Assembly (NCBI GenBank): GCA_029571225.1
Contig: JAKPTF010000035.1
Span: forward strand, 12,575-76,574
Source: Candidatus Omnitrophota bacterium
Lineage (GTDB): Bacteria; Omnitrophota; Gorgyraeia; Gygaellales; Profunditerraquicolaceae
Length of the DNA: 64,000 nt
Reading direction: 5' to 3'
Part shown: in pieces, positions 1 to 63,996 of the stretch
Layout: the number at the start of each line of letters is the position of its first letter
How positions within the stretch are numbered: position 1 is the first letter of the stretch
Program-made: the position numbers and the translations under genes
Notes under the pieces: generated by a model
Seen by the model: the letters and a program-made list of their open reading frames with translations, nothing else
What the model was told of the DNA's origin: nothing
The model's database searches: none

Positions 1-185
1 CTGCTTCAGCGCGGTCAAAGCGCCCGCATTCTCGAAGATCGTATTGGCGCCGATGACCAGCGCACCCTGGGTTTTTTGTTCGGCGCGCACCGCATTCACG
101 ACATTGCCGAAATACGTCGAAACCGCCTGGTACACGGCCTGATCCATCTCAAACAACGGCGCGGGCATATTCGTTGCAACACCGC
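1..185 (-). other. Shared C-terminal domain, copy 1 (N-terminal part only; the rest is off-window)
   Basis: KDGG | VATNMPAPLFEMDQAVYQAVSTYFGNVVNAVRAEQKTQGALVIGANTIFENAGALTALKQ aligns with copies 2 and 3. Confidence 0.7.
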
Positions 186-6100: not shown

Positions 6101-7179
6101 ATCTTTTCCCAGACGTTCCTGTTGTTCCTGACAAACTCGAAATATGCCGTCGTTGTGACGTTCTGTCCGCGCGGCACATCAACGATACGGGACATGACCG
6201 ACAGGCTCAATCCCTTGCCGCCTGCAAGCGCAAGGCCTACCTGCTTGGCCTGTCTGCGGCCGACCTCTTTGGCGTCTTCAGAAACCGACACCTGTGTCGA
6301 AACATCAGTCGCGACACCGGTCACTGCGATAGCCCCTGCCCCTGCGCCGGCGGTTTCCGCCCCGCCGGTCGGGCCAAACATCGGCCCCGCACCCATCCCC
6401 ATATGGACCATGTCGCTGCCGACGAGCAGGGCAGCCATTTCCTTTGCCTTTTCCATCCCGACTTTCCTGGCCAGTTCATACACATAATCGCGCAATTCGC
6501 CGAACTCCACGACCATGCGCTCATTGACCGGGACCAGGCTTCTTTTTTCCAGCACCAGATAATCGTGGACGAGAATATCCACGACCGAAATCCCTTCCCG
6601 TTTCATTGCCGCGACATCCTCTTCGATGTTCTCGGCATCGCGCGCGAACACCGATAGCGGCAGATCCGGAATATCGCTGACGATCGCCTTGACCACGTGT
6701 TCCCCGGCAGCGTCCTCTTTCACCAAAGCAAGGGGAATGTCCGTATAGGTCAGGGTGTAAAATTTATCGCCCGGGTTGACCGCGCCGAAATAGTCCGCAA
6801 GATTCGCCTTTGCCCTGGGAGAACGAGCCAGGTCTATCTGCTGTTTTATAAATGTCCCGTAGGCGAGATTATCGATGGTCGCCGAAATCTTATAGTCGCC
6901 CAGAAATGCCTTGAAGGCATCCGCGCCTTTTGCCTCCTGGGAAGCGCCTGACCCGCCGTCCTTTGGAGCGAGAATCTCGGTTTTGGCAACTGACGCGGGC
7001 GCGACGTCAAGCGCCCGGCGTATCTCGGTAAGCCTGCCGCCGTCACGCGCAGGCGCGGGACGCAGGTTCGAATCACCAGCCAGCGCGCGCAGGGGCGCTG
7101 CACTCACGATAAACTGGACGGAAACAATGACGGCGATTATCTTTCTGGTAAACATAGATTTCGTCAACCTCTGGAACAT
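1..7179 (-). CDS. Partial (3' end beyond left window edge) large secreted multidomain protein with a PEP-utilizing enzyme core (PEP synthase / pyruvate phosphate dikinase family) and the start of the shared C-terminal domain
   Basis: My own reverse-complement translation. Start ATG at 7177-7179 is preceded by a GGGAGGAG Shine-Dalgarno and an in-frame upstream stop at 7195-7197. N-terminus MFQRLTKSMFTRKIIAVIVSVQFIVSAAPLRALAG is signal-peptide-like, followed by two DGG junctions (ARDGG, APKDGG). ATP-grasp region: GLALAGGKGLSLSVM ... AVRSSGTKED ... GSQAGQSDTFLNV. Phosphohistidine swivel: TIRGGDTCHAAIFCREQGIPAVTG (about 3780-3850). PEP/pyruvate-binding C-terminal barrel: NPLVGLRGTSL ... FFSFGTNDYSHLAG ... 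MGDREDPKMKLKIMDPAAIA (about 2400-2880). A KDGG junction at about 185-195 is followed by ...QGALVIGANTIFENAGALTALKQ, which matches the C-terminal domain of the next two genes. Absent from the ORF track only because it has no stop codon in the window. Confidence 0.8.
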   Translation of the reverse strand, partial: MFQRLTKSMFTRKIIAVIVSVQFIVSAAPLRALAGDSNLRPAPARDGGRLTEIRRALDVAPASVAKTEILAPKDGGSGASQEAKGADAFKAFLGDYKISATIDNLAYGTFIKQQIDLARSPRAKANLADYFGAVNPGDKFYTLTYTDIPLALVKEDAAGEHVVKAIVSDIPDLPLSVFARDAENIEEDVAAMKREGISVVDILVHDYLVLEKRSLVPVNERMVVEFGELRDYVYELARKVGMEKAKEMAALLVGSDMVHMGMGAGPMFGPTGGAETAGAGAGAIAVTGVATDVSTQVSVSEDAKEVGRRQAKQVGLALAGGKGLSLSVMSRIVDVPRGQNVTTTAYFEFVRNNRNVWEKIFNELQTLDTMDDQKRDVVTSEIRETIKNAPIPTDIKDEIISMYHQLSMIRYQVTGKAVPAAVAVRSSGTKEDIHVKTWLPVSTGSQAGQSDTFLNVKGDKAVLDKTRADFASLFTDRAVSYRDDATFLQFSGAIDYQGKLSQDVYWDIVAKLREYAKKLNKPEYAAYADQMSQISSPNPGSVNLMNAMEEILSHEREEWLAEALKVLKKKSEEVTHPEQIGIDVVIMQMVKSYLAGVLFTVNPATKMAGVAQSLYNAWFKNDDSLLFRDKKTGLITGTKAIVASFEIAFGYGENVVGGKVSPDKYVMATYDGEHWFVIEKNKGNKLIQMRNVEDVIESFTGKMSEKELNTLAVTLKEAIAYDEVGKRINGILATKLYGTRYLRAEGIDEKQKKAQVQRIANDIAAMIKAKEPEAAVMDFIKERFLIAHRKGEKGFQEAELSGVVRNVFEEVTKAEKETTRGMHKLAAQLGDMKKADTFIYMIKETWENKEFELPERIAVLNKLGLSGVEMENLSYLMRALVDNSFTSNFKTTKVHQNTFTFADEMAAHVARMGWNIVEYYGDKRDIEFAIEVDRTAPEDKALRIYEIDVDGRIWGVDARGERAEVKSEEDKARIKAMPMRLYNVQARPYTAEYLKTDVVRARTEADEKWIEDHSDAKPIASGTKGENATHGYVLVFDPNKDIAWHADQIRRLKSGDFTDEERRRIQEIGFDLNDIGPDNPLPVILYLLEADPNHDPIMRLVNSVVTIRGGDTCHAAIFCREQGIPAVTGAGKVMLGGQLVKTGDALTVDANNGNIYEMDSDPEKRIPVNYVEFTVEPPLIPGDPDNMPYPKIGQIIAATSAAQQNSPIMLATDSAGNALTRAEFKGEEIGINVYAGYGHFLLQQIADGTIAMPQRVYANDRARTSMPGAEKFLDTMSREMFEYMRKHPTAAATFVKTYGRLPEINDMLSVLSVFDLMSDIRLNKIDAAQVFPQQKADLNFVEGLNKDDYEFFSYAYGKFQRRFNYNYNILTDLQNHPWILDEVNKKLNEKGYANFKEYVSKEFLYFYNLMGFTIAPDQVAKNRAYDFAQDKIRGMPGSEIFSWPGVNPLVGLRGTSLEIEAFDEQFGGNQLVLDFLFDSVIEAHQNTKNQAWFYVFIRSIRELETLDTIIEYKARQKGKLPKEIGIMIEVPSAAMDVPQLAKKMADMGRKYKKYGVEHTFFSFGTNDYSHLAGMGDREDPKMKLKIMDPAAIAAIPEMKRAGYFYDEGTKRLPLIDEGADVMLQLIEAVVASAEDEEVATSLCGEAITALVNRGDYETAGKIMVLLDSFGVSMMKVRLPASMTRYDVMAATKEIKSLPDDAKKHPLFDLSQGEVRQKKGIIKGEIVFVDGIEDLIPDALKGLQGPDLLAKKESLKLQSLKDARSTSRFFEKIAVITRNPVAFSKEEISAAVGASAFEYLTLTPGQKPLMRKLDNGLFVWTNLDVPEMKFKEQVDASITDPNARKKILELWKKAWDNSVAGLKRRGIDWQHLQYVPAIIVDADADLTGWDVFDKNKSIIPTRIKAIAKGINASRGILEGKFVTVDYGAKKIYRGNLDVVKIKTPLRRLPVPQTKPQVPVKAAVAENANDVYAAMVYHPRAILAYEKKDWTEQAKMFDDYVAKLVDEVEKVMQETSAEKRAWLLARLETKVESLREPVIKKFMLDVLDDAKQKGAVSLGNDWISGLRRQYFDDLNAGISKILNGRTAEQFITGKFEEAMRSALAAHPGALVIHKTDSLNCVQFSDLRAGFLEEQVNPNPDYGIAGAARAIGDMWQINRMALKAFKNVRDSLPPADRKNFGLQITHVKGTQAGAIMIAWRDILKDLKIIPGEDGLEVGVDIATPANTLELDKYLEYFKDLGTGLSFISYDTLKLGAAWAGVDIFWDEWRRLATEEELLRFGGIAASIAEAKLETANKADPSSSRKVVVFENVQTPVVVDTTQKPAGQVGRVLKDGGVATNMPAPLFEMDQAVYQAVSTYFGNVVNAVRAEQKTQGALVIGANTIFENAGALTALKQ

Positions 7180-7217: not shown

Positions 7218-7900
7218 TTATATCTTGTTCAATGTATCTTCGAATATCACCTGGAGTCTGGCTATGTCATCGCTGACCGCAACCAGCGGAATATCCGATA
7301 TCTGAGCTGTTAATTCATTAAGGGACTTGGCATCCGCCTCGCTGATCATGCCCCTGTCCTTAAATGCCTGCACCATTTTGGCGAACTGCGCTCTCGTAGT
7401 GCCGACGTCGAATATAATGGCGATCGCCTTGGCGATTGCCAGCGGGACTGCGTTGATCTGTTTGACCGCCCCTGCCGTCCGCGCGGTCGAAACATGGACC
7501 ATCTGCAGCTCGCGATTATTGTTGAAGAATACGCTTGCATCGGGTACCTTGTACTCATCCTTGATATTATCGAGATCGAGATCCGAGTTGATGAGCACGA
7601 CTTTTCTGGGTGATATTTTGAGCTTCTCCATTGCCATGAGGGTTTCGCCCAGGCCCGTGTAGATTGTCGCTATTTTGTCAACGCCCAGCGCCTTTAACGC
7701 TGCGACGTCATCGTTATTCCTGGCCCATACGGCTATGGTGAGGACATTGGCCGCGTCGCGTGCCTGAGTGAGCGCTGCAATGCTGCCCGCGTTCTCGAAT
7801 ATGGTGTTGGCACCGATGACCAGCGCTCCTTCGATCCCTTCTATTTCGCGAACGCCCTTGATGATACCTTCATACATAAATGACGTTGCGCTGTACACGT
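7218..7900 (-). other. Shared C-terminal domain, copy 2 (roughly 230 aa, ends EDTLNKI)
   Basis: GALVIGANTIFENAGSIAALTQARDAANVL ... LINSDLDLDNIKDEYKVPDASVFF ... INAVPLAIAKAIAIIF ... DIPLVAVSDDIARLQVIFEDTLNKI. No family recognised by eye. Confidence 0.7.
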
Positions 7901-10073
7901 TTCGGTCGGCGTCCTCGATGAACGCGGCAGCTTTACCAACAAGAGAATCGGCCGCATCCCGTACCCGTGCGAGGTCCAGATACGCCTTGACCTTGGAGAA
8001 AAAGTCCGCATACGCGCTTTCGACCTCAGGGGTCATCTGCTCGGCAACGAACAATACCGCTTTGCGCGGATCGAGCGAAGTGTACATCGCCTTGACCGTG
8101 CCGATGGTCTGGGCGAAAAGCAGGTTATCGTCGAATGGCACAGCCGGCTGGGGATTATTCAATGACGTAAAATATGTGGAAAAGAACATGTTCCTGCCGT
8201 CCTGGATGTTCTGCTGGTACGAATGGTTCTTATCCGGCCCTTCACCGAGTTTCGAAGGTATCCGGAGGCCGCGGGTAAATATGTCCCGGCGGGCGTCTTC
8301 AAGAATCCTCGTCATGGCAGGGCTCAGCTTGCCGTATGAAGACAACTCAGCGGCATTGAACTCGGTCTCGCCTGCTTTGGCCTTCTGTTCCAGAATCTGG
8401 GTGATTGCCGCATACACTGCAGCCGCGTTCTGCATATCCGCGCCCATTCTGCGCACCTGCGCGTCCAGAGCATCGGCAGTGATAATCCCTGACATGACAA
8501 GCGGCGCATAATACAGCGTGAATGCGTTTAAGTAATCGGCCGAAAACGGCGCCCATGCTGCCAGAACATCCTGTTTGGTTTGCCCGGAATCCTTCATGGC
8601 TTGAGCAATCGCCTTTGATTCTTTTTTGTATGCTTCGACGCCCGGTTGATTCACAAACCTGATATCCCATAAATAACCGATCGTCGCTACCATGCGCTGC
8701 AATCCGAGCATAACCCCGCCGATATCGGTAATATCCTTGATATTGATCTCCAGGGTCGGATACCCGTTTTCCTGCAGATACTTCCAGAATTCCCTGTTTG
8801 TCTCTGTTGCGCCGAGGTTAATCCTTAGGAAAACGCGGTCATTCTCATCAGCCGGCTTCAAAGACGCTTTCCACTGGTCATTGTCCGTTCCCAGGTCTTC
8901 TCCGTAAAAGACCGTGACGCCTTTTCCATCCTTGCCGAGCGATTCCTCGAATAGTTGTTCGGCCCACATAGGCAGAGCATTCAGTTTTTTCGGCACCAGC
9001 ATGGTCAGCTTGTCTTGTTTCAGATTTCTGGCGCGCACGAAGATCTCTGCCCCCATTTTCAGAAAATCGCCCTCACTGAGGCCCGAATTCATCCGCACGG
9101 CGCTCTTTAATATCGGCTCGATATCATCAGCCCCGGGCGTCAATGACCACGGAAGCATGAATATATTCGTGGTCGGCGCGGTAAACCGTCCCCCCACGTC
9201 CTTGAGATTATATACTTTGCCGGGGTTGACATCGTTCATCTGGATATATGCCCCCTGGCCTTTTTTGACATGGTCCCCATCCCACGGGCTGCCGGGATCG
9301 GTCACGTAAAACAAATGTTTTTCCGGGCCGGACACTGCGTATGCTTCGAATAATTTCCTGAAATATTTCTCGTGCTCAGTGGTTTCCTGGGTGGTCGCTG
9401 TCTTTGACATGAAAACCGCAACGGTTTTTTCCAAACCCGCCTTCATGTCATTACCCTCGGCACGCGCGATCTCATCGAGTATGGCTTTTATCGCGGCAGG
9501 ATCGGTGGTCCTCAGGCTATAGAACGGAGTACCTTCAGAATCGGGATCAAATGTTTGTTTGACCAGCTCCACGCTTAAGCCTGACCCGCCCATTCCACAG
9601 AACACCGCGTATTTAAAGCGGTTTACCAGCATTAAATTTTTAAGCCCTGTCGCCTGCCAGGGGACATATTCGTCAGCGCGCGCCAGATCGTCCAGAATAG
9701 CCTGGGCATTCCTCACGGTCCACCCAAGGCGAGAGGTAACGCCGTCTTCCTCATATCCCCACGCCGCGAAATCGCTGTCCGCCGACTCAAGCCGCTCGTT
9801 CATGCGCTCGGCCTTCAATCGTTGCATAAGCGTTTCGACTTCCCGTTTAACATTCACCGGCTTTCCGCCGTCTTTCAAAAGCGATAAGCGGCTGATGCCG
9901 AGATCCTGGCCAAGACTGTGTAAGCGCGAATTGCTCTGCTTTGCCGAAACCGGCCGGAGGTTATTGCCAGCAGCATAACCAGGAACAGCAATGCTATCGA
10001 CAAAAAAAGCCGCGCTCATGGCTACGGCTATTGCTTTACGAACGCGCCTTAAAGTTTCCGTCGAAGCAGGCAT
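7218..10073 (-). CDS. Secreted glucose-6-phosphate isomerase (PGI/SIS family) domain fused to the shared roughly 230-aa C-terminal domain
   Basis: 951-aa ORF. ATG at 10071-10073 with a GGGGGAG Shine-Dalgarno 5 nt upstream. N-terminal hydrophobic signal-like segment AIAVAMSAAFFVDSIAVPGYAAG, then an LLKDGG junction. PGI motifs FCGMGGSGLSVELV and KDVGGRFTAPTTNIF. C-terminal about 230 aa (ALVIGANTIFENAGSIAAL ... DIPLVAVSDDIARLQVIFEDTLNKI) is paralogous to the C-termini of the two flanking genes. Confidence 0.75.
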   Translation of the reverse strand: MPASTETLRRVRKAIAVAMSAAFFVDSIAVPGYAAGNNLRPVSAKQSNSRLHSLGQDLGISRLSLLKDGGKPVNVKREVETLMQRLKAERMNERLESADSDFAAWGYEEDGVTSRLGWTVRNAQAILDDLARADEYVPWQATGLKNLMLVNRFKYAVFCGMGGSGLSVELVKQTFDPDSEGTPFYSLRTTDPAAIKAILDEIARAEGNDMKAGLEKTVAVFMSKTATTQETTEHEKYFRKLFEAYAVSGPEKHLFYVTDPGSPWDGDHVKKGQGAYIQMNDVNPGKVYNLKDVGGRFTAPTTNIFMLPWSLTPGADDIEPILKSAVRMNSGLSEGDFLKMGAEIFVRARNLKQDKLTMLVPKKLNALPMWAEQLFEESLGKDGKGVTVFYGEDLGTDNDQWKASLKPADENDRVFLRINLGATETNREFWKYLQENGYPTLEINIKDITDIGGVMLGLQRMVATIGYLWDIRFVNQPGVEAYKKESKAIAQAMKDSGQTKQDVLAAWAPFSADYLNAFTLYYAPLVMSGIITADALDAQVRRMGADMQNAAAVYAAITQILEQKAKAGETEFNAAELSSYGKLSPAMTRILEDARRDIFTRGLRIPSKLGEGPDKNHSYQQNIQDGRNMFFSTYFTSLNNPQPAVPFDDNLLFAQTIGTVKAMYTSLDPRKAVLFVAEQMTPEVESAYADFFSKVKAYLDLARVRDAADSLVGKAAAFIEDADRNVYSATSFMYEGIIKGVREIEGIEGALVIGANTIFENAGSIAALTQARDAANVLTIAVWARNNDDVAALKALGVDKIATIYTGLGETLMAMEKLKISPRKVVLINSDLDLDNIKDEYKVPDASVFFNNNRELQMVHVSTARTAGAVKQINAVPLAIAKAIAIIFDVGTTRAQFAKMVQAFKDRGMISEADAKSLNELTAQISDIPLVAVSDDIARLQVIFEDTLNKI

Positions 10074-10153: not shown

Positions 10154-10162
10154 TAATTGATA

Positions 10163-10880
10163 TTAAATCTTGTTGAGCGTATCTTCGTACACGGTCTGCA
10201 TTGCTGCGACTTCGTCGCTGACAGACACCAGCGGCACATCGGCCAGCTGCGCGGCGAGCTGCGTGATGTTAAGCAGGTCTTCCGAGCTGATGAGGCCTTT
10301 GTTCATATACGCAGCGGCCATGTTCTGGAGCTGCTGTCTGACCGTATCCTCGGTATTGAAGATCATGGCGAGTGCCTTTGCCATGACAAGCGGCATCGCA
10401 TTGATGCGTTTCTGCGTGACGGCCGCGCGGGATCCGGTTACGCGCACGTTCTTCACCTTTGCCTTTTCGAAGAACAGCGACGCATCGGATACGGTAAACT
10501 CGGCTTCGATATTGTCCATATCGGCATCCGCGCTGATGAGCGCGATCCTGGCCTGCGGGATCTTTGCCGCGGTCACTGCCTCAAGTGCCGCCTTCAAACC
10601 AACATGGATCGTCGCGATCCGGCCGACCCCTAATGCCTCAAGGGTCAGCTTAGCCGCGTCGTCCTTTGCCCATACGCTGAAGTCCACAACGCCTGCCGCA
10701 TCTTTTGCTTTCTCGAGCGCCGCGATGCTGCCGGCGTTTTCCATGATGGCGTTGGCGCCGAGGATAACCGCGCCCCTGGCGTTCTGGACATCGCTGATTG
10801 ATTTGACGAGATCATCGAAGTTCAACGCGCCTGCATTGTACACGCTTGCATCGCTCTTAAGCACAGTCTCGATGAGATCG
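10163..10880 (-). other. Shared C-terminal domain, copy 3 (roughly 230 aa, ends EDTLNKI)
   Basis: GAVILGANAIMENAGSIAALEKAKDAAGVV ... LISADADMDNIEAEFTVSDASLFF ... INAMPLVMAKALAMIF ... DVPLVSVSDEVAAMQTVYEDTLNKI. Confidence 0.7.
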
Positions 10881-13800
10881 GCGATATCGACCATTTCGGG
10901 AAGCACCGTCTCTGTTTGCGCAAGCGCAACGGAGGCGCCTCCGTCCTTTGCATAGTCGCCATTGACGAGGGCGCGCATTCTCACGCCGTCCACCATCCAC
11001 GGTGACCATTTGGAGATCATCTGGTTGGGAGCGGCTGACTGGTTGTCATACAGGCCTTTGATGATCACGGTCTTCTTGTTTTCCAGCACCTGGATCAGCA
11101 CGCTGTCGATGATTGATATATTGTTCCAGCCGACGACCGCATTGACATCGAGCGGGCCAGGGTTGACCTCTGGATCGCCCTCATAGAATTTCACCACTCC
11201 GTCCGACTTGTTGAGCGCGAAATCCTTCAAAGCGGCACGGACCTCCTCCACGGTAGTTTCTCTTTTCAGGTTCAGGGTCACTTCCCACAGGGACGCAGAA
11301 ACCGTATCCGTGCGCACAGCGGTTATCTCGAACTTGCCTTTGAGCTGCGGTATCATCTTGAACAGGTTCTTCTTGGCCCCGGTGGAGGCGGGAATGATAT
11401 TGTCGCGGATCGAATCTCCGCGGGCAATATCAAGCGGGTCGCGCGCCCTCTTGCTCTTCATGGGGAAAGTCTCGTTCGAATCGGTCTCCGAATGGATGGT
11501 CAGGCCGGTCCCGTTGACGATACCGAACTCGTCCCACATGGCCTTGATGACCGAGATCATGGCGTTGGACGTGCAACTGAGCGTGTCAACGATCTTGACA
11601 TCCGGCCCGATCTGTTTGCGCATGGCAGAATACAGCGCTTCTTTGAACACGGCGCTGACGGATTTATCGACCGTGTCGGCGCTGACGCCTTCCTGAAGGA
11701 ACTTTTCCTTGAGCATATTCTTCACCGCGTCGGTGTTGACCGGGGAGGCGGCGACAACGGGGAATCCGGCTTCCATGAACTCCTTGAAAATGCGCGGCTG
11801 GACCTTTTCGTCAGTCGGGCCGTAATACGATACCACATCCGGCTTGACTCCGAGTGTCCTGACGGTATCGAGCACCTGCTGATTCGTCGTTTCTGGGCCG
11901 AAATACGGAATCTTTATATCGGGCCTTCCTATATTTTTGTCGCCCGGCACGAAGATGAAATTGACCTCGACGCCGTCAACGACCCTGCGCTCGTCCTTGA
12001 GCACGCGCATACCTTTCACCTGGTACGGCCCGAACGGGCCGTTGTACCTGCTGTTCATGCGCACGAATTCCTCTGCGCTGGCTTCTTTGCCGCCCTTCAT
12101 GGACTTGAGAGCCGCCAGATTGACGCCCGGCTCCCAGTTCTTATAGAAAAGCGCAAACGCTCCGGCGCGGAAAATAAGCGCGTTCGCCGCGATGACCACG
12201 ATGTTCTGGTCCTGCAATGCCAGATCAAGCTTCTTGGGCGTATTGCTTTTCGCAAAAACGCCCATTCCGGCAAGGATCTTGACCTGCGCAAGCTGCCGGT
12301 CATCGATACGGTGCAGGATCCTTCTGATCGACTGCATGACTTCCTGGTTATCGCCGCTTTCCTTCTTGATTGTATTCAATTTCCACAGAACAGCCTTCAT
12401 TTCATCAAGGCCAAGGGACAGTATCTCACCCGGCTTGAGCTGATACAAACGCTTGACCGCAGCCTGATACCGCAGTTGATTCATAGCTGCCTTACCAAGC
12501 TTGAGGTTTGTTTTTTCATTGACAAGCGCCATATTCGCCAGCAGGTATTCATCGCGGTGGGCGCCTTTGTAATCCAGCTGCCTGCCGCCGAGTTCCTGAT
12601 CGAACGGTATGGACTTGATCTGGCCCTTATAGGCGTAGAGCAGCTGATTGTTCTGAAGGTCGGCGATTTTCTCAACAGCCGCTTTGCCGAGCATGCCGGT
12701 CATTTCCTCGTCAAGTTTGGAAATATCAGCCGAGCGGAAAAGATAATCGGCCTTGCCTGCGAGGCTGATGTCGATTTTATCTTCCTTGAGCGCCGTCTTT
12801 ACCACGGCCGCGACGATTAAACCGGCGTTCTCGAGTTTGGGATGACCGAAATCGTCAACGCCGGCTTTCATTGATTTAATGAACGCCGCTTTGGCAACCG
12901 GATCGCTGTTGAACGCCGCCAGCAGCAGCTTGACATCGGCATTGCGGGGCTTGACGACTTCAAGGTCTCCGTTGTCGTTCAGCCTGAAGCCGTCGGTCGC
13001 GATGCTGGCTCCTTCAGCTACGACGACGACGCCGTATTTGTTCTGCTTGTAATACGCTCGCAGATCATCCACCAGCTTCTTCAGATCCACCATCTCTTCG
13101 GGGATCAGGGTACGGGTAGCACCGACATTGGCGCCGATGCGCGCCGCAACAAACCCTGCGCTTCTGCCGAACACTTCGCCGATGAGAATCCTTTTTGTCG
13201 ATATGGCGTCGATTTTTCCGGCTTCGAAGGCGTCCGTAGCGGCCCGGGTAAAGCTGTCAAAACCATAGGTCTGCGCATCCGGTTCTGGAAGCGCGATATC
13301 ATTGTCCATGGTCTTGGGCAGGCCGATAAAAAGGAATTCAGGATGCTCTTTCTGCAGCTTTGCCGTAACGCCATTGGTATCGTCGCCGCCCAGGGTAACA
13401 AGGCCGTCCAGATCGAGCTTTTTGATATTCTCCCAGACTTTCTGCGCGTCACCTTCCTTTTTATACGGATTGGTGCGGCTTGTCTTTATGAATGTGCCGC
13501 CTTTTTTCTCCCACTTTTCGGCTTCCGAAAGGCGTATCGCCCTGGCCTGCGCCACAAGATCGTCTTTGATGAGGCCGGCCCATCCTTCGGGGATAGCAAC
13601 GATCTCGATACCGTTCTTCAGACCTTCGCGCACCATCGCTGCAAGGACCTTGTTATGCCCTGACGCGGGTCCGCCGCCGGTTAACACTCCAATCCTCTTG
13701 GGTCCGACCAACTGTGAAAATTTGACCCCCTGGCGGTCGGTAACGACCTGCTCCTTATACCTGATACCGGTGATAAATTCCACGGCATCGGCAACGGTCG

Positions 13801-15313: not shown

Positions 15314-15329
15314 CGTTTCTTCTCCTTTT

Positions 15330-16859
15330 TTAATCTTCCGCAAGATATGTATCCTCGAGTTCTCCCTGTTCCCCCCGGAGAACGGAATAATAGATTGACG
15401 GGTCAGACCGCTGCGATATCGAAGGGGTAACCACGGCGTAGGAATAACCGTGCTCCTTGAACAACCTGCTCAAACCGGATGTGTGAAAACCGCCGGTAAT
15501 GACAGCGACATAGCTGCTGTCCGATGCGGTATTGATCTTCCGGGCGATATTGCGCATGAACGCCTGTTCGCGGTCGATCCCGACTTTATAAAAACTGTCG
15601 AGCGCATCGAAATTTTCATCGATGACCGTAGACGCGACGGGCCGTGACGGAAGGCCGTACCTTCTGCATGAATCGGATAGAAACACGATCCATCCGGCGG
15701 TCACATAGCGGGAGCGGTCGGCCTGCATGGCGTCGTATTCTGCGGGCGTCAGGTCGAGCCGCAGGAACTGATCGAGGGTATCGAGCGCCTCCGAAATGTC
15801 GCTCAGGCGGCGTTCGTCATTATTAACAAAAAGCTCCTGCCGCACACGCGCCTCCAGTTCGGAGATCTCCCTGATCAATTTCTCCGCATCGATATTCCTG
15901 CCCATAGCGACATACCGCATGTATGCGTCGAACTGCGGATAGGCTGCCGCCAGATCAAGGTGGTCCTGCGCGGCATTGCGCAAAAAGTCATAAAATTCCT
16001 GAGCGGATATCTTTTTGTCCTTGAAATCCGCCGTCTTATCTATCAACTCCTTAATCGAGGCGCCCTGCAATTTCTGGGCAAGGTCCTTGATGAATGCGCT
16101 CCGCTGGGACTCCGCCTGTTTGAAATCGATCGTCTTTTCAAGTTCGAGGCTTTCCCTGAACAAATTGACCTGCTGGCATTCGGACAGAGAGATACTCTTC
16201 TTTTGCGCCGATTCGGCAAGATATGTAACGTATTTGACCAGCGGTAACGCTTTATGCTTGAATGCTCGTTTCTGCGCATCGAGCTCAATCAGCTCGGGAT
16301 TGAACATATGCGGCTTGAGCGCCTCGACAATAGCGGCCAGCCCGTTGATATCGTTCAATCCCTGCTCCTTGTATGCCTCTATATTAAGGAAGGAATCCAG
16401 GTTGCTGTCGTATAATGCGGGGTCTTCAATGCCGAAAAGCTCAAGGTTATGGTCGGAAACGATGTCGAGGTATTCTTCCCCGGATATCTTGCCGTCGCGG
16501 AGGTATTTTTCAGCGACTTCCTCGCGCGCCTTTTTATCCGCAAAGTCCCTTAAGAACGAAAGGCTCACGTCGCCGCTGCCCCCTTCGACCATGATGAGCC
16601 TCAATTTCTTTTCGCGGGCAAGATAATCAAGGATCTGCGCAAGGTTCTTTTGTGCTTCGTAGTTACAATGGGCGTCCTGGATCTGTATTATTGCAGGGCC
16701 GGGCCGTCCTGCCTGTGGCGCTTCGAAGACTTCCTTGATTGTGCCGAACTGGGAAGGTATCTGAAGATTTTTTAAAGGGGTGCTTGGAAAAACGGGATTG
16801 ACATAAATTAAGGAAAGCAATAAGAAGAATGGAATAGTTTTTTTAAGTTTTTTATTCAT
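15330..16859 (-). CDS. Secreted TraB/GumN (Tiki-like) family protein, putative
   Basis: ORF 15330-16991, but the convincing start is the internal ATG at 16857-16859 (MNKKLKKTIPFFLLLSLIYVNPVFPS, a classic signal peptide). The C-terminal motif AVITGGFHTSGLSRLFKEHGY resembles the TraB/GumN GxGHxxGxxGLxxLLxxxGY motif; N-terminal IQIQDAHCNYEAQ is a possible first His motif. The stop at 15330-15332 lies 17 nt from the next gene's ATG, which indicates translational coupling. Confidence 0.45.
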   Translation of the reverse strand: MNKKLKKTIPFFLLLSLIYVNPVFPSTPLKNLQIPSQFGTIKEVFEAPQAGRPGPAIIQIQDAHCNYEAQKNLAQILDYLAREKKLRLIMVEGGSGDVSLSFLRDFADKKAREEVAEKYLRDGKISGEEYLDIVSDHNLELFGIEDPALYDSNLDSFLNIEAYKEQGLNDINGLAAIVEALKPHMFNPELIELDAQKRAFKHKALPLVKYVTYLAESAQKKSISLSECQQVNLFRESLELEKTIDFKQAESQRSAFIKDLAQKLQGASIKELIDKTADFKDKKISAQEFYDFLRNAAQDHLDLAAAYPQFDAYMRYVAMGRNIDAEKLIREISELEARVRQELFVNNDERRLSDISEALDTLDQFLRLDLTPAEYDAMQADRSRYVTAGWIVFLSDSCRRYGLPSRPVASTVIDENFDALDSFYKVGIDREQAFMRNIARKINTASDSSYVAVITGGFHTSGLSRLFKEHGYSYAVVTPSISQRSDPSIYYSVLRGEQGELEDTYLAED

Positions 16860-16861
16860 GG

Positions 16862-16918: not shown

Positions 16919-16946
16919 GTGGCCATTCCATACTGTATGTGCTTCT

Positions 16947-16964: not shown

Positions 16965-16981
16965 ACGCCTTACTATTAAAA

Positions 16982-53000: not shown

Positions 53001-56000
53001 GCGCATAGACAAATTTCTGCTGTAGTGATAACGTCTCCCAATCAGGCCGCAAGCGCCGGTGATACAGCTGGGTAATAGCCTCTTTCAACCGGCCGGGACC
53101 GCATGCTTCCCTGGCGATAACAAGAAATTCCAGATTCTCCTGGCGGCCGCCGTCGAATGCCCCGGACATGCGATAGTGCTGATCTATTGCGGCATACTCT
53201 TCTTTTACCCTGGCCATCCATTGATCATGAGCTTCCCTGCCGTTTTGCCCGGAGAATTCCGGTATTGTTTTCTGCGCTGTCGTTGATATCAGGTCAAACA
53301 GTTCCGTGTCGGATCCGGTCCCGGTGCCGAATGTATGCTGCAGGTCGCGTATAAGACATATCCCCATGCCGATGCGCTCGAGAACCGTCTGATCGTACAG
53401 ATTCTGATATGACAGAGAAGAAATATTCCTGGCCAGATGAGCCGGCGACAGGAAAAGCCATTCTAACATAAGCGATTTGATAATGGTCGCCGGAACGGAT
53501 AATGAGATCCCACCCAGCACCAGAGACACGGCAACGGCGGAGAGCCAGGTAATAGGCGAGACGATCACCACCCATATCAGGATGTAGCCGATGTTAAGGG
53601 ATGCCTTTGCGCACCATGAAAGCACGGTATCAATGGTGTTTATCGTCTTGCGGTGCCTGCCAAGGGCGAGCGGCCATCCTGCCGCATCTTTACTGCGTGT
53701 TTTCCATCCGATCAGATGAGCTGTCATACGGCAGGAATCAGTTTCCAGGGACGGATATAAACCGTTGAACACCGCCGCTGCCAGATTGACATGCGTGAAT
53801 ATTATCAGCGCAAGCCAGGGAGACGCGATGTTCGGGATCAATACCGAAAAGGGCGCGATCCCCAGGGAATACAGGACGATAAGGCCGATCACTGCCAGGA
53901 TGAGGTTGGATAAAGGCCCTGCCGCTGCTACGTAGAAGCCGGACCGGCTGGAGCTAGTGATCGCCGTTGCGGGATCCTCCTCGACATATGATGAGACAGC
54001 GGACAGCCTGATGCGTCTTATGGGCCTCTTGAATCGGATCATGACGAGCGCATGCGCGGCCTCATGGATGGCTGATATGGAATATACTCCGAGAGTCAAG
54101 GCGCCCAGCACCGGGTTCAAGACCCACAGGACGATTATTGCAGGAACAAGAAGAACCAGATTAAAGTGCAGTTCGATCGGGATCGATGTGGGCAGGTGAT
54201 AGACGCTTGAGAACCCTCTTCCGGTCCAGCCGGATTTTCGCCGCTCCGTTTCAGATTCTCCGCCGTCGCGCAGGATGACGTGCGGCAGGGTCTGATAATC
54301 GGGCACGACGGTGCGGATGTTCACCGCGCGCTTGAGCTTCTCCCAATCGACCTTATTGAGCTGATGCTCTGCGGCGATATTCTTCAACCAACCCAGCTTC
54401 TCCTCCAAGGATAAGCCGTTCCATTCAGGCCCGCTTGTCTTCTCAAACACCTTGACCGCCGCTCTGCGCAAAGGCGCATGGGGTCCGTAGTTTTCCTGTA
54501 TCTGTGTCCTGAAATACAAATAGGTCCAATCTGCGGAATCACGAGGTATCGTCAGCCCGATTTCTGATATAAGATCCTTCAGTTTAGTCTCCTGAACGTC
54601 AAGTTCATAATTATGCCCGAGCGGACCGTTAATAAAATAACCCAATTCCCACTGTTTATATGCCCGCACCACAGCTTCTTTCAGGGCCCAGAACTTAATG
54701 GCATGCAGATTCCGAGCAATCTCCTCTTTGGTGGCGGCGCGGGTCGCCGCGGGCACAGAATCGCATAATATCCCGTCGACTGCGATCCCCCGGCTGCGAA
54801 GGCCGCTGCACATCGAGACGATCATATCAAGGCTTTGCTGAAAATCATCCTGCGCGAGATTGCGGATCATTTCCAGAAATTCAGTCTGCGTGGTAAGATG
54901 AAGAAACACCTCGTGGGCATGCCGCATACCTTCCGACCCCTCTCCCAGGTACGGCACAAGCTGACGCTCAAATCCATACAGGGCGCGCAACCTATCCCTG
55001 GCGGTTTCGGCACTATCTGCCAGGCGGAATACTTCGCTCTGGAACTTTAACTCTGCCTGTAGCGATTCCGTAAGCCTTGCTCTTCTTCTATCGTTCCAGA
55101 CAGACAACGCGCAAAACCGCACGGCCTTGTCGCCCTGCAGCCGGGAGAGCCAATCCTGGATCAGAAACGTCAAATACCTGTCCGGAAGCTGGCTGAAGGC
55201 TTTTGCCGATCTCTCCAGACTATTATCAGATACATCGGAGCTGTCAGATACTATGATCTTCTTCATCCGGGGATGATCAACGCAATGGTGCACGGCCAAC
55301 GCAATATCATACACATGACCCGTGAGGAATAAAGCGCCCATAACAGGCATGATATAAAGAATATTCAGGGAAAGCGTGAAACCCACGCCAGCAGCTATAA
55401 AGTTTAAAATTACAGTCATGAAGAAAACTATCCATCCAAGATCAGCTTCTGGTGACGTATGATATGTCCGCGCCTCCAGTGTTTTCCAGAAAGGGACCTG
55501 CGGCAGAGCCTTGCATAAGCGATTAGAGATTTCTTCATCTGCCACAAGCAGCATATTGACTACGAAGTTTAAAATAGATATCATGAATATTGTCGCGCAC
55601 AAAATGAGGCCCAGAGCGGACAACATAAAAATTCCATCGATAGTCACGGCCTGCGTATAGAACTGCCATGCCAGACCTGTATCGCCTCCTGACAACGCAG
55701 CCCAGGCCTGCGCAAAATATGAAAGAGATATCTGATCCTGGGGGGTTAAGAAACCGGCGGCGAAAACGCTGCATGCAGTCCACAGCGACCCGCCATCCGA
55801 ACGCAGGCTCGCCAGTCCGTCCTGGTCTGTTAATTTCTCCCGAATAAGACCGTTGTTGAACTGCGGGTTGACCCAGACGATCCTTCCATCAGGCGTAATG
55901 TCGCAGAGCGCGGGGCACACAATATCGATGCCGAAGGTCCTGTGCCACTCATCCTGTATATCGCGCGGCAATATCAAACGGTATATGTCGGCCACCGCAC

Positions 56001-59000
56001 GACCCTGCTCGACGTGGGTATATGCGGCCCTGTCCGGCCAATTCGCCGGGTCAAGAACCGTTTGCCAATCCGCCTCTGTAATCTCTCCCTTCTGCAGGCC
56101 CAACACCACCCTTAAACTGCTCAAGAGTTTTTGTCTTTCCTTCGAAAGGTCGCCGCCGTCATGCTCTGCCGCTAAACTAGTCTCCTTGGCACTGATTATT
56201 TCAAGCGCATCCCCGGCCATTTGAAGCGTTGCTTTCATACCCCGTATCTGCTCATCGGAAAAATCGCCGCTGGCGCGCACACTTTCAGCGATCTCATCGC
56301 GCATCTCTGCGGCGCGCGCGCGGCGGTCCGCAGGCTTTTCCTCCGCAACCAGATGGTGAATACCCTCGGCGATCATAACCAGGTTCCGGTCGTTCATGAA
56401 GTCTGCCGGGCGCAACTGGCCGGCAATATCCTTGAGCTGCTGTACCGACGTTATGGCATAATCGTGGTTAACCAGGCCAAAGGCTGAAAACATCAAAACG
56501 AATACACCTATAATTCCCAGGCTGAAGGGCACATAAAACGGAAGAATGCCGATTACGGACAATACCGCCAGGGCAATGCAACTGACCGCGACAATCCGGC
56601 TGTAGACTACGGTCACCCTGTTCGCATAAACGACATTTGTTTTCATCGCAAGCAATGACCTGATCACGCGGCCCGAATCAAGCGGGTACATCGGCATGAA
56701 AAGATTGAATATGCCCAGAATCCAATTGATCAGGCCAAGCGACACCAGCCAGGCGAGCGGGCTTGCCATATCTATGACCGGCCAGGCGAACAGGTTGAAC
56801 GAAGCACCCAGGAGCGCTGCGGGAACGAACAGCGACGCTGCTATGCCGAAACTTGCAAGGGGGCCGGCAATGGAAACCAGAAATTCCTGTTTCGGATCCC
56901 TGAACTTCATGTCCCGGATCGCCGTAGTGCCTCCCAGGATATGAAGCGTAATATGATCCGTTTCAAAGCCGTATCGCCGGGCAGCGCGGATATGCGAAAA
57001 TTCATGCGCCAGCACTGACAGAAGAACGGCAATATAGAACAACAGAAGTTCCCATCCGGTTAACGCAAACAGGGCAATCGGAATAACCAGCGTGATGTGC
57101 AGCCGCAGCGGGATCCTGGTCGGTATCTGTAACGATGGAAATATCCCGTCGCCGACCAATTCCCAGGATTTGCTCTGCGCTGCGCCGCCGTCCCGGCTCG
57201 CATCGATCCGTGTCGACGGACAAACCACCCTGGCTCTGAACCATAGAGGAACATGCCGGATCATATCCTGCCTGATCGAAACAGCTTTTATAAAGCTGTC
57301 CTGCGCCATGTCTTCAAAGCCAAGGGCAAGCGACATTGCCCCCAGGTTTACATGTGATATATGGCACGCCGGATTGAGCTCGATTGCCTTCTGCATCTCT
57401 ATAATGGCTTGCTGAAAATAACCCTGCCGGTAATAGAGTAGCATGCTGCGGTTATAGAGAACCGACGCGTAATCGGGATTCTGCTCAAGCGCCTTCCGAT
57501 ATGCCGAAAGTGCGGCGTCATAGTGGCCGAACTCCGCATATACCGCTCCCAGGTTATTATAAATACAACAGCTCACGCCCGGCTTATCCATTATCTGGAA
57601 CCCGAAGTAAAACAGATTCAATAATTCTTTCTTTGTGATGCGGTCGACATCCAGCACGCCTGCCTGATATTGCTGCTCGAGTTCGATAACACGCTCGCCG
57701 GATATTTTATAGTTTGGCTTGAGTACCCAATATACGCCTGCTTTGCGGTAATATTTCCTAACATTGACGACCCGCAACGTGTTTAATATGAAATCGATCA
57801 CCAGCAATCTTTTCTTGTCAAGCATGAGCCCGACAAAACAATGTCCGATACGGCTGCAACCCCGGACGTTGAATCCCAACATTGCCAGGATGATATACGT
57901 CAATTGCGCGGTTACAATACATCGCGCGAGGCATGCTTTCATAGCAGCGCTTTCGCTGCCGGAACGGGAATCGGCATCAATGACATCGAATATATTTTCG
58001 TGGTTCAGGCTGTTGACTAACAGCATGCTTATCTGCGGCGGATCAACCTCTTCAAAAATCCGGTTCCTGTCGAACAGGTCCCACACCACAAGCATTAATT
58101 GGCCGAGATGCTTTCTGCCTTCGGGGGCATTACGCAGGCACTGATGCCATTGCGCTGATTGTTCTGTAAGGGTTTGCCATGTATCTTCAGGAAGGACCTG
58201 TTTGATCTGAGCGTTCAACGCCGGAACGGCATTTTCAGGATACCCGATGCTCACGAGAATACCGGATAATTTTTCATCATACGCTCCGCCGTCCAGGCTG
58301 AGATACAACTCCAGAGCCTTGTTCCTGACCAGCGCAGTCATTTCCGCTTTCATATCGGCATCGTCAGGGTGCGCCATGCAGCGGCGGAAGGCGCTATCAA
58401 AAACCCGGGCCGTGAATTCAAATCCTGCGTTATAGTAAAATTTTATGTAGCCGAACATCCCTGCCGGATCGCGGTCGATCACCGGCGACGGATCATGCGC
58501 AAATCCCCTGACCGCGCCCTCATGAAGGGAATATATTGCACGGAGCCGTTCGATGAATATCTCGCGCGTCCAACCCTGATGCCGGTATTCCGGGAACAGG
58601 AAGAACCCGGTATTAAAGAACCACTTGGAATGCCAGCCAAATCCGACAATCCCATCCCTGTTGGCCAGGATCTCGAGCCTTTCATGGCGGCCGCCGATCG
58701 TGACGTTGAACCCGCGGGGTCTTTCCGAACAGGACCAGTGTATCCCGCGGCCGAGGATCGTCGTGTAGAACGGATCGTTCTCGAACATCATGATACCTTC
58801 TGTCTCAAGACAGAAATACGTCCTGCCGTAACGGGCGCTGTGCTGACTTATTTTTGCATCAAGCATTGCTACCTGGTCAGAGCTATCGGCCCAATCGGAA
58901 TCGAAAAGCTCGATCGGCTCTTTGATCCTGCTGACGATTTCTTCGCGTCCTGTCCCGCCGTCGCGCAGCGCTCTCTCGATCATCTTGATGTCGCTTGAAA

Positions 59001-62000
59001 GCCTGTCCATGGCAAAATCGGTATACCTGCAGGCGATCATGCGTTTATTGACCGGCAGTTCTCCCCGCGCCACGCGCGTCCGGATGCCCTTCATGGTAGA
59101 GGTAAACCCGCTGATGAAGCTATCCCTTGCCGCAGGCCGGATATCCCGGGCCGCGATATTCGACAGGAGGGATTGCAGCATTCCGGCCTGGGTGCTCAGA
59201 TCGTCTTTGTCCAGAGTGAACGCGCTGACAAAATCTATATTGTACATTTCAATAACCGTATCGAGGTCAAGATCAACCCGGATATTGCTCGGGTTCCTGT
59301 CACCGAGGCCGATCAAATAAGCGGCAAATGCGGTCTTGCCCAGCAAATATGCCAGTTGCGGGACAAAACGACGGTTCGCGAGCAACGCGTCATTGAAAAG
59401 GTAGATATCCTCAAGGCTCGAATTGCCCACGTTGGTATAAACATAGTAATGGCTCCGGTAATCGACGAGCATCTGCGTCGGCAGGGTAAACGCCTCCAGG
59501 ACTATCGAGGCATACGGCTCATAGCTGTACGAAAAGGCCTCTTTCAGGATGAGCGTTATATGCTTCGAACCGAACCGGACTTCCGCGCGGTACGTCCGGA
59601 GGTCATCAAACGAGGTCTGGATTACGCCTTTTATTAATTTCACGGATCCGATGCCGTCGCAGCCGAGGCGGCAGAGAAGCTGCCTGATAAACTGTTCTTC
59701 CTGGCCGCCGTCGCACGATTGTTTTGCGGAAGCCGCATCCTCTTTCCCATCGGCAGCAAGATACTTTTCTATGACGTGGCCGGGGATCAGCCTGTTCAAT
59801 CGTTTGACAGCAGATTCCTTTTCGTCAGGGCCAAGCACATTGATCACGTGCAGATTTCCCGGCGACAGGACAATCGCCTTCATGAAATTTTCCATCGCCT
59901 CCTGTTTATTTTCCGAATACAGATTAACGAGCCCTAAGCCAAGATAACTGCTGTAGTCTGCGGGATTGAGTTCCCGGGCAAAAGAAAACTCTTCCTCGGC
60001 ATTCTGGTAATCCCCTCTCTCAAGGTAATTGAATGCGGCGCCGATGTGCGCAACGACATAGTCCGGTTTAAGTTTAAGGGCCTTAAGATAATGCGCCAGC
60101 GCCGCATCCTTATCGTTCAGCCGGTCATACGTCATCGCCGCTTTCTTGTACATGACCGCCATAAGGCCTGATGCGTCGGTAATATATATATTCGAGTAAT
60201 ATAACGGGAACATCTGGGCATCTTTGAGCGTGTACGCAGGCTGATTTTTCCTGTCGGACCTTTCTTTCAGCCGGAGCAATGCCGCAGGCTCAAGCGGCCA
60301 GTTCCATGACAGATATTTTCCCTCGGCGTGGTAGGTATCCTGCAGCGGCACTGCCTTAATAATGCCGGTGAACAGGTCGACAAAAATGTGCTCGCCTGCC
60401 CAGGGGACAACCGCGAACACGGGGCCGGAGCCGACGGCAATCCTTGTCTCATAACCAAGCATCGATAACAGCAGATACATAAAAGCAGTCTTGTTGGCGC
60501 ACGTAAAAAACGAGTCATAGATCCTGTTTTTCTCTTCTTGCGCGAGGGGCGAGGCAAAAAGGGCGTCGAAAATATGCTGTATCGGCAGCGAGTGCACCAG
60601 ATATTCGTGGATTAACCAGACAGACCTGATATAAACCTTGTCATGCGCAAACCCGACTTCAGGGAGTTCGTCGTGCGTTGTTTCAAATACGATCTCTCGC
60701 GTCTTTCCGTCCCGGACGCTCTCGTCAAATATTTCCCTGAAGGTCTTTTCCATGATGAGAAGCGTGTCCCGGCTGAATTGCGCGCGGAGCTCTTCGATGA
60801 AAGCGGGCATGATCTCCTTTTCGCAGGACAACCGGCGCAGGATTTCAATCAGGTCCCCGTCATCGGCTATATGCCCGCGGTTGGGAAGCAGGAGCGCCTG
60901 CTCCGCCTTGAGCATGGCCTCTTTTTCAGCTCGCGATTTCCTTTCTATCTCAAGGTACATGGAAAGATACGGGATATCAAGGAACGTCGGGCAGACCACG
61001 ACATCGACCGCATCCGTATTTGCAAAGCCTTTCTTGAGGCCGCGGTAATAATTCATGATGCAATCGCCTTTTTCGAACATCTTCAGATTAAAGATGACGA
61101 ACGGTTTCTTGGCCTTCTTTTCCGCAAACGCCGCTGCCTGCAAGACAATACCCGCAGCGCTTTCAACCGGCATGGCGAATCGGGCGACAAATACGCCGTC
61201 GATGTCTGGTTGCCCTAAATAATCCGCGGCATTGTCCGCATTGACGTACCTGCCGTACATAAGATAGATCTTTCGCGCAATGCGCGGCCCGTACCGTTTG
61301 TTCCGGGCGAGCCACGTCCGCAGTGTCCGGCAGACCGCCTGGGCCTCGGCAGGATCTATTGCCTTCTGCTGCGACTCCTGCTGCTGCTTTACCCACAGCG
61401 GCAGATAAATGACAATGACCTTCTGGGCCTGTTTCCTGCCGATGCCCTGCAGGGCGGTGCTTAACTGGTTGATCAAAACCTCATTCGTGACCCCGCGTTT
61501 TCGTTCATCGAGCGTATCAGACACGAAAATGGCCGGTATCAGGCCGTGCGCCAGCGCAGCCTTGACCTTCTTATTGACGAGTTCATACGATTCCACGATC
61601 TCGACAACGCCGTGCGTCCGTTCCGGATGCCCGACCATGACAAAGGCGACCTGCTCGCGTAAAAGCATGGAGGGCGAAACCTCTCCCGTATACGGCCCCG
61701 CGTCCTTGTAGAACATGTTCTGGGCGCCCATGAATATACCGCCGTCGCGGTCGGTATCGGGGGCGCATTTTTCACGGTCGGACAGCTCGGTCATATACCC
61801 CTGCGCCGCCAGGAATTCGGCTTCTTCGAACCATGTCAACTTCGCATTGCGCATTTGTTCCATGACAATGCGGCGGTACAGCGATCCGGGATCGAGTACG
61901 ATGGTCACCAGATAACTCCACGGAAGCCGCTCGATGCGCGTTCCGTTCCTGATGGTCCTGCCGGAAAGCGGCACCGGCAGTTCCTTGCACATGATGCCGG

Positions 62001-63996: not shown

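Follow-up and report, generated by a model that had tools for sequence, protein, structure and literature searches.

Does a giant open reading frame (ORF) of an Omnitrophota genome yield one chain or many proteins? ORFs that span 10,000 to 147,000 amino acids (aa) are common in this phylum, and this is the central question about them. West-Roberts et al. (2023) proposed cleavage for the 'Archaeovorin'-type giant genes and stated that the cleavage points were unknown (10.1101/2023.11.21.568195). According to the describers of such ORFs, the one-chain question could not be addressed, the cleavage points not being known. In this study, a stretch of 64,000 nucleotides of contig JAKPTF010000035.1 from a Candidatus Omnitrophota bacterium (assembly GCA_029571225.1), hereafter called the window, was analyzed. 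It carries one such ORF, named G, on the minus strand (17077..63996). The tripeptide Asp-Gly-Gly (DGG), mostly preceded by Lys, Arg or Gln, recurs between the units of G and is the first concrete candidate for where Omnitrophota giant proteins might be cut. With this motif the question becomes directly testable, since the motif predicts peptides that start after DGG or end in DGG, and these can be searched for in metaproteomes.

Enrichment of DGG in ORF G

The part of G within the window has 15,639 aa without a stop codon, and the DGG sites divide it into 38 units (S00-S37). The N-terminus lies beyond base 64000, outside the window. The database fragment P0003 is identical to G over the overlap and adds 639 residues upstream, still short of the start, which brings the total known length to more than 16,000 aa (15,639 + 639). 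G is therefore a single stop-free ORF of more than 10,000 aa, the mark of the Omnitrophota giant multi-enzyme ORFs. At least 13 unrelated Pfam families tile it, including DUF1152, TIM, TPR, two M50 modules, a run of AAA_5 domains with midasin-type AAA lids, VWA, CoaE, HEAT, ROK, CDF (cation efflux), HAD and GNAT. There are 66 hydrophobic peaks, many of them overlapping, clustered in 18 of the 38 units. Stretches of G match the database entries P0001, P0003 and P0005 at 99.8-100% identity, and all three entries carry the name 'MAG TPA: Candidatus Omnitrophota bacterium'. The nearest genome in the species-representative set is a metagenome-assembled genome (MAG) of Ca. Omnitrophota with 46% identity.

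The results showed that DGG occurs 37 times in G, against 4.16 occurrences expected from composition. Among 2000 shuffles of G, the mean was 4.2 (standard deviation 2.0) and the maximum was 13. DGG was the most enriched tripeptide of the protein (8.9-fold), and the permuted controls GGD (6) and GDG (2) were not enriched. An earlier reading of the letters (the original prediction) had put the motif at about three dozen copies where a handful would arise by chance; the shuffled-control count bears this out, and every example motif that it quoted was found in the sequence. Seven or eight sites were inherited within one paralog family, so that about 30 of the 37 are independent. Six more sites lie in the neighboring gene B, gene C and a PPDK-like fusion gene, giving 43 sites in all, and Gly-Gly is invariant among them. 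All sites are on the minus strand; below, they are given by their aa position in the protein and their coordinates in the window.

The residue before Asp had been read as Lys, Arg or Gln. This held for 24 of the 37 sites in G but not for the remaining 13; the proportion was 31/44 for the sites with full flanks in the genes of this genome and 43/70 when three lineages were pooled. Asp, Glu and Pro never occurred there. None of the other flanking positions exceeded 0.6 bit.

The DGG signal is under selection at the level of the protein and not of the DNA. All 37 copies of GAYGGNGG are in frame 0 of the coding strand; the other frames have 1 copy and the opposite strand has 3. Relatives with 40% and 46% G+C content use other synonymous codons for DGG, and no nucleotide conservation was found outside the nine motif bases, where the flanking information stays below 0.35 bit. 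Within the motif, GAC is used at 32/37 and GGC at 25/37 sites. This bias was considered as a nucleotide signal and rejected, since Asp-Gly pairs outside the motif (54 GAC : 11 GAT) and Gly-Gly pairs are biased alike. Internal translation starts were also rejected: Met follows Gly-Gly at 1/44 sites in this genome and at 2/70 across lineages, and the one ATG examined, that of QQDGG-MM, is too close to the Shine-Dalgarno-like GGAGG to serve as an internal start.

Position and conservation of the sites

DGG sites lie between folded domains. None of the 37 sites falls inside a Pfam best-stretch envelope, although the envelopes cover 17.9% of G (P = 7e-4), in line with a junction motif. The spacing is protein-like (median 352 aa), with one gap of less than 110 aa where 8.2 were expected (P = 3e-4), and the largest gap, 2330 aa, coincides with a multi-AAA unit. 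The 10-15 residues upstream of DGG are markedly hydrophilic (z = -3.9 to -4.6), while the downstream residues are not. The next unit begins right after Gly-Gly: the TIM module at +1, the CDF profile at +10, an AAA lid at +11, and transmembrane (TM) helices at +1 and +4. On the other side, the CoaE, HEAT and HAD profiles end 17, 14 and 24 aa before a site, respectively. CDF, HAD and CoaE, whose profiles start or end near the ends of DGG units, are known as stand-alone proteins. As in polyproteins, several units of independent-protein families are thus joined in one ORF, and a short conserved site stands at the unit boundaries. The claim that the motif marks essentially every module boundary was too wide, as several DGG-to-DGG units hold two or more domains: TIM with TPR, CDF with HAD, an unannotated N-terminal region of 135 residues with CoaE, and six AAA domains in the 2330-aa unit.

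Read from its N-terminal side, G has its first sites at aa 196 (TERQ-DGG-ASSV; 63403..63411), at aa 330 (AAEH-DGG-HFRI; 63001..63009), 28 aa before DUF1152, and at aa 751 (DTDR-DGG-IFMG; 61738..61746), directly before a permuted TIM module. Those at aa 1429 (59704..59712), 1679 (58954..58962) and 1902 (58285..58293) follow. The site at aa 2269 (57184..57192) is 48 aa before the first M50 peptidase module and is followed by sites at aa 2613 (56152..56160) and 2734 (55789..55797). The site at aa 3244 (54259..54267) ends the paralog module S09 and precedes the second M50 domain by 54 aa. After the site at aa 3615 (53146..53154), the 65-aa unit S11 ends at aa 3680 (52951..52959), and the paralog module S12 ends at aa 4125 (51616..51624). 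The next site, at aa 6455 (44626..44634), closes the midasin-like unit S13, which has no internal DGG over its 2330 aa.

The paralog module S14 ends at aa 6902 (43285..43293), followed by a site at aa 7108 (42667..42675) and one at aa 7901 (40288..40296), 53 aa after a VWA domain. The sites at aa 8355 (38926..38934) and 8809 (37564..37572) end the paralog modules S17 and S18. Past aa 9343 (35962..35970), the site at aa 9777 (34660..34668) ends S20, with a TM helix from +1, and that at aa 10267 (33190..33198) ends S21; both units are paralog modules. The end of the CoaE domain is followed by the site at aa 10605 (32176..32184), then come aa 10886 (31333..31341) and 11143 (30562..30570), and the site at aa 11417 (29740..29748) follows a HEAT_2 domain. 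The unit S27 starts at aa 11623 (29122..29130). Further sites are at aa 12244 (27259..27267), at aa 13182 (24445..24453), 85 aa after a ROK domain, and at aa 13473 (23572..23580) and 13631 (23098..23106).

Toward the C-terminus, the site at aa 13881 (NGFR-DGG-HEHH; 22348..22356) stands 10 aa before position 1 of the CDF profile, that at aa 14500 (20491..20499) stands behind the HAD domain, and that at aa 14765 (19696..19704) is followed by a TM helix from about +4. The unit S35 starts at aa 15019 (18934..18942) and ends at aa 15243 (18262..18270), 52 aa before a GNAT domain. The last site, at aa 15604 (17179..17187), leaves a tail of 33 aa to the stop codon. A single-sequence AlphaFold model of G 14440-15639 placed five sites in non-helical gaps, but its mean predicted local distance difference test (pLDDT) score of 37 gives this little weight.

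The midasin-like unit has on its two sides a total of seven modules that are paralogs of one another, about 450 aa long and 20-34% identical (54259-55788, 51616-52950, 43285-44625, 38926-40287, 37564-38925, 34660-35961 and 33190-34659, minus strand). Each consists of two TM helices and an all-alpha domain of about 300 aa without a Pfam family. Asp, Gly and Gly are 3 of only 11 columns invariant in all seven, and they close a tail that varies in length and sequence. In an AlphaFold model of the module (7 sequences, pLDDT 76), the last 16 residues ending in DGG form a coil after the final helix. That DGG has persisted unchanged in these old paralogs, while their flanks are now only 20-34% identical, points to purifying selection on the peptide. 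The fold of the module gave no significant match in the PDB. A word-indexed homologue search with its profile returned matches from the same organism only, and an exhaustive profile search of 1.84 billion representative proteins retrieved only 28.

At least three further giant ORFs of Omnitrophota carry the motif as well. P0002 (GCA_026387435.1, 46.5% G+C) has 5 DGG against 0.46 expected and keeps the boundary before DUF1152 that G has at aa 330, the DUF1152 unit being 63% identical. L087 (JGI 3300045909, 53.6% G+C) encodes the motif 23 times on the coding strand and once on the other. Its TIM unit (39% identity) has DGG immediately in front of IFLGAQN, as at aa 751 of G, and DGG also precedes an S27-like unit (44% identity) that has another upstream neighbor. 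P0030, the N-terminal 6788 aa of a giant gene of GCA_022013145.1 (39.7% G+C), has 19 DGG against 1.76 expected (P = 7.5e-14). A metagenome scan with the DUF1152 module gave no match in a collection that does not hold the window's own contig.

DGG-bounded cassettes are shuffled between these lineages. In P0002, a 190-aa unit between two DGG sites aligns over its full length with the whole of S35 of G; it stands two units before DUF1152 in P0002, whereas S35 is 14,700 residues after DUF1152 in the window. The S27-like unit of L087 comes directly after the TIM unit, and in the window S27 is 10,000 residues away from it. When P0030 is compared with its DGG-less relatives, the BLAST blocks stop at DGG sites and come in another order. 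The rearranged units fit the idea of module shuffling, but no recombination site in the DNA extends beyond nine bases.

Downstream of G, the same motif appears in glycolytic fusion genes. Gene B (10163..15343, minus strand, 1726 aa) encodes a Sec-like signal peptide, class-II aldolase-like, PFK and GAPDH_C domains and a shared C-terminal domain. Its sites are at aa 70 (FLGK-DGG-SLAT; 15128..15136), after the signal peptide and leader, and at aa 1467 (DYAK-DGG-ASVA; 10937..10945), before the C-terminal domain. Gene C (7218..10073, minus strand, 951 aa) encodes a signal peptide, a PGI-like region and the shared C-terminal domain, with one site at aa 68 (SLLK-DGG-KPVN; 9864..9872) after the signal peptide and an NLRP leader. 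The PPDK-like fusion gene (1..7179, minus strand) also encodes a signal peptide and runs off the start of the window; on the identical ENA contig L001 it has 2573 aa, of which the last 180 or so are outside the window. Its sites are at aa 46 (APAR-DGG-RLTE; 7036..7044), at aa 74 (LAPK-DGG-SGAS; 6952..6960), 28 aa after the preceding one, and at aa 2331 (RVLK-DGG-VATN; 181..189), before the shared C-terminal domain. The motif had been placed after the signal peptides of these three genes, which is correct (ARDGG in the PPDK-like gene, LLKDGG in C, GKDGG in B), and the fourth gene, just outside the window, likewise has DGG after a Sec-like signal peptide. Its placement before the shared C-terminal domain applies to the PPDK-like gene (VLKDGG) and gene B (YAKDGG) but not to gene C, which has no DGG there.

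Cleavage site, uncleaved linker or fusion scar

We believe that [K/R/Q]-D-G-G may be a protein-level processing signal. Translation of G would give a single precursor, which a dedicated endopeptidase would cut at or beside each DGG. The cut would most likely fall after Gly-Gly, as with C39, Ulp/adenain and PLpro-type cysteine proteases, or alternatively between Asp and Gly, as with caspase- or taspase-type enzymes. Cutting would free about 38 protein-sized products (65 to 2330 aa), among them soluble enzymes, membrane proteins and a midasin-like AAA machine. In the glycolytic fusion genes, the sites 10-40 residues behind the signal peptides might allow an N-terminal leader or anchor to be removed, and the same site might detach the shared C-terminal domain. 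If the units work as released proteins, they can be reordered within the ORF, which would explain the shuffling of DGG cassettes between lineages.

That the motif is a protease site making G a cellular polyprotein seems to us a proposition with an even chance of being true; the cutting itself, the position of the cut and the enzyme are what we infer from the sequence. The reading is suggested by the asymmetry of the sites, their place behind signal peptides in four genes and before the C-terminal domain in two, the exclusion of Asp, Glu and Pro before the motif, the free order of the units, the inter-DGG peptides of 17-35 aa and the existence of protease families that cut after Gly-Gly, of which several are known. 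The anatomy of the sites is what a processing site would look like. Runs of the very short peptides occur in P0030 (aa 3545-4044), in the window (6952-7044) and in P0002 (aa 88-117); in appearance they are closer to spacers or small released peptides than to domains.

Polyproteins cut at Gly-Gly are well known. They include the substrates of coronavirus PLpro (LXGG), of the alphavirus nsP2 protease and of the adenovirus protease, as well as African swine fever virus pp220/pp62, cut by the SUMO-like protease pS273R, and polyubiquitin, cut by deubiquitinases. G shares with them one ORF for many proteins and a short site ending in Gly-Gly at each boundary. However, those systems are viral or ubiquitin, with a known protease and demonstrated cleavage, whereas the present units are metabolic enzymes and membrane proteins encoded on a bacterial chromosome. 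A bacterial parallel is found in MARTX toxins, whose inositol-phosphate-activated cysteine protease domain cleaves after Leu, and polymorphic toxins with releasing peptidases were reportedly described by Zhang et al. in 2012. These too are large bacterial proteins with exchangeable modules shuffled between strains and short sites between the modules. Their modules are released by a protease encoded in cis. Unlike G, they carry toxin cargo for other cells, they are 3 to 10 times smaller, and their modules do not resemble enzymes of core metabolism.

The double-glycine leaders of bacteriocins and PCAT systems offer another comparison. The Peptidase_C39 family cuts after Gly-Gly, and Gly-Gly stands at P2-P1 of all 43 sites, directly before the presumed mature N-terminus. 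In the DGG-rich P0030, a TM segment and a Peptidase_C39 domain (E = 1.4e-7) of the subtype DNNCG...EHFVLV stand at the N-terminus. According to West-Roberts et al., full-length giant genes of Omnitrophota carry C39 domains close to the N-terminus, and an N-terminal signal or TM segment followed by a C39 peptidase is general (10.1101/2023.11.21.568195). The DGG sites differ from such leaders in being internal and repeated dozens of times, with an invariant Asp at P3 and a basic residue or Gln at P4; they lack a conserved amphipathic leader, and some follow Sec-type signal peptides. In 80 metagenomic loci of other Omnitrophota giant genes (L007-L086), the conserved sequence LSxxE[AS]KxVLG[AGS] was observed about 25-30 aa after the C39 domain, behind an N-terminal TM segment and that domain. 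It matches a canonical double-glycine leader and is a candidate self-cleavage site of the C39 module.

Several results count against cleavage at DGG. No cognate protease was found in the window, where Pfam gives only the two M50 modules, and a C39 profile run with all filters off had no match in G, the 639 upstream residues or the neighboring genes. The C39 leader consensus LSxxELxxIxGG (hydrophobic at -4, -7 and -12) is not seen: position -4 is Lys, Arg or Gln at 61-70% of the sites, and the other upstream positions stay below 0.6 bit. The two closest species-representative genomes (41-46% identical to gene C), wholly stop-free over the locus, have no DGG enrichment, nor have the 80 metagenomic loci over their N-terminal C39 region and up to 3700 aa downstream. 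A C39 domain by itself is thus no predictor of the motif. We have not filed the motif under C39 processing, since it has no canonical leader, no C39 domain was found in the window, and C39-bearing giant genes generally lack DGG. Furthermore, sites occur both in apparently exported proteins and beside apparently cytoplasmic enzymes, a distribution not easily reconciled with one protease confined to one compartment. Leu, Phe, Trp and Tyr are scarce at P1' (5/70 against 13.5 expected), but this is not diagnostic of N-degron avoidance, as other linker positions are similarly depleted.

Of the proteases that the original prediction had named in cis, the two M50/S2P modules are present, but no SprT-like or transglutaminase-like domain was found with Pfam (E <= 0.1-1). 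An HExxH motif was read by eye in unit S16. Neither the M50 intramembrane modules nor this motif, which together make up the candidates in cis, is known to cut at DGG. The lability of Asp-Gly, once suggested as a basis for cleavage, has to be dropped, as it yields isoaspartate and not chain cleavage by established chemistry.

Conservation in homologous loci, a check that had been proposed, is partial: P0002, L087 and P0030 have the motif, but most giant ORFs sampled do not (L003, L004, P0022/25/27 and the 80 C39-bearing loci). Three relatives of P0030 at about 30% identity also showed no DGG enrichment. The absence from relatives at 41-46% identity and from the 80 C39-bearing genes indicates that DGG punctuation is lineage-restricted. 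No alternative junction motif was found in L003, L004, the relatives of P0030 or the 80 C39 loci; an excess of YPS in L003 was rejected as such a motif, being due to repeated domains.

A second reading, which we consider unlikely though worth serious weight, is that DGG is a conserved linker that stays uncut, a hinge, a turn or a docking site for a chaperone, scaffold or insertion factor, so that the giant protein works as one chain. The motif would then help a megadalton chain to fold, to insert into the membrane or to assemble. The hydrophilic, non-helical tails outside folded domains agree with this, as do the flexibility natural to Gly-Gly and the lack of a cognate protease. Related giant ORFs do without the motif, which is therefore not essential to the architecture, and this also favors a linker. 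However, flexible linkers are normally biased in composition without a fixed sequence, and here a tripeptide is invariant across paralogs of 20-34% identity and recurs in genomes of 40-54% G+C. A hinge hardly accounts for the asymmetry of the sites, their place behind signal peptides or the peptides of 17-35 aa between them, and the strict absence of Asp, Glu and Pro before the motif looks like enzyme specificity.

It is far less probable that DGG is a scar or tool of gene and cassette fusion and recombination, with little function in the protein. DGG-bounded cassettes are indeed rearranged between genomes, modules that are separate genes here lie inside giant ORFs in relatives, and some sites read GGAGG, resembling a ribosome-binding site. 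However, the codons of the motif vary synonymously with the bias of any Asp-Gly or Gly-Gly pair, no start codons follow the sites, and the motif persists in old paralogs with diverged flanks. With no conservation of nucleotides around them, nine degenerate bases cannot guide homologous recombination. That the excess is an artefact of composition, internal repeats, mis-assembly or mis-translation is hardly credible: although seven or eight sites were inherited within one family, about 30 stand in unrelated contexts against about 4 expected, the shuffles and permuted tripeptides gave nothing similar, three assemblies made independently (ENA ERZ773284, Logan SRR5007359 and an NCBI MAG) agree exactly over parts of the locus, and other genomes are enriched as well.

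Returning to cleavage, a wider proposal would be that this lineage makes a large part of its proteome as cellular polyproteins, with a precursor of more than 16,000 aa, carrying metabolic enzymes, transporters, intramembrane proteases and a midasin-like AAA machine, cut by a dedicated protease at [K/R/Q]DGG into about 40 proteins, the same site maturing exported glycolytic fusions, gene order within the ORF unconstrained, and DGG cassettes as the unit of genome evolution. We put this forward tentatively, as something a little short of an even chance. If true, it would be a virus-like expression strategy serving core functions of the cell. If the sites are cut, G would belong to the first cellular polyprotein system for core metabolism, and the reading of gene number, operons and protein size would change. 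If they are uncut, DGG would still be an unexplained, strongly selected linker element. DGG also offers points at which giant ORFs can be divided computationally before structure prediction and annotation.

G resembles the Omnitrophota giant multi-enzyme ORFs in its phylum, its stop-free length above 10,000 aa, its many unrelated Pfam families and TM helices, and the glycolytic and PPDK domains at its locus, and cleavage has already been speculated on by the authors who described them. It differs in that DGG-punctuated ORFs form a distinct subset restricted by lineage. Published accounts (two preprints and one paper) cover the glycolytic and PPDK domains, the C39 domains and the TM helices. 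Nielsen & Lui (2026), whose set includes 5,761 Omnitrophota proteins of 10,000 aa or more, described a 'multi-enzyme metabolic cluster' class and mentioned neither cleavage nor motifs nor DGG (10.64898/2026.06.07.730766). No report of a junction motif or of DGG was found in the literature on Omnitrophota giant genes, full-text searches included. Given that the published accounts do not mention the motif, we regard the finding as a new, lineage-restricted feature of a known kind of gene.

Neighboring genes and other features of the locus

All large genes of the window are on the minus strand. Gene A (15330-16991, 553 aa), located between G and gene B, encodes a signal peptide. It contains neither a Pfam family nor a DGG site, and the gene-position index gave no exact match to it. 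Counting the next gene on L001 after the PPDK-like gene, which encodes TIM, Peptidase_M54, PGK and enolase domains, there are four consecutive glycolytic fusion genes (window 1-15343, minus strand, and L001): aldolase-PFK-GAPDH, PGI-like, PPDK-like and TIM-M54-PGK-enolase. All four encode a Sec-like signal peptide, and their leaders contain NLRP, which is degenerate (HLRG) in gene B. The C-terminal domain of about 230 aa, without a Pfam family, is common to three of the four (41-66% identity). The predicted export of such ATP- and NAD-dependent enzymes would be odd.

The PGI-like module, a separate gene here, lies inside ORFs that are stop-free over 21.6 kb in L003 (JAQUPI010000006.1) and 18.4 kb in L004 (CAZWJT010000006.1, labeled Planctomycetia). 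The same units are thus fused or split differently between genomes. In L087 (Ga0496406_003196), the giant ORF is broken on one strand into over 25 small ORFs whose frame keeps shifting, a state that reflects either indel errors of the assembly or a decaying giant gene.

The DGG-free unit S13 (44626-51615, minus strand) is a midasin/dynein-like run of AAA_5 domains with lids. Three units beyond it, S16 (40288-42666, minus strand) combines a VWA domain and the HExxH motif in one unit. Together, the two resemble the MoxR/midasin pair of AAA and VWA proteins.

The TIM module of G (about 60967-61737, minus strand; aa 754 to about 1010) is circularly permuted. It begins at canonical residue ~58 (IFMGAQN) directly after DGG, and the canonical N-terminal beta1-alpha1-beta2 (KPFVIFNLKMFE...VDVVVCPTFLDI) is placed after the C-terminus. 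The module may not be an active triosephosphate isomerase, since the catalytic Glu of YEPxWAIGTG is replaced by Leu (IYLPLWV). The same permutation is present in L087 (16624-17395) at 39% identity.

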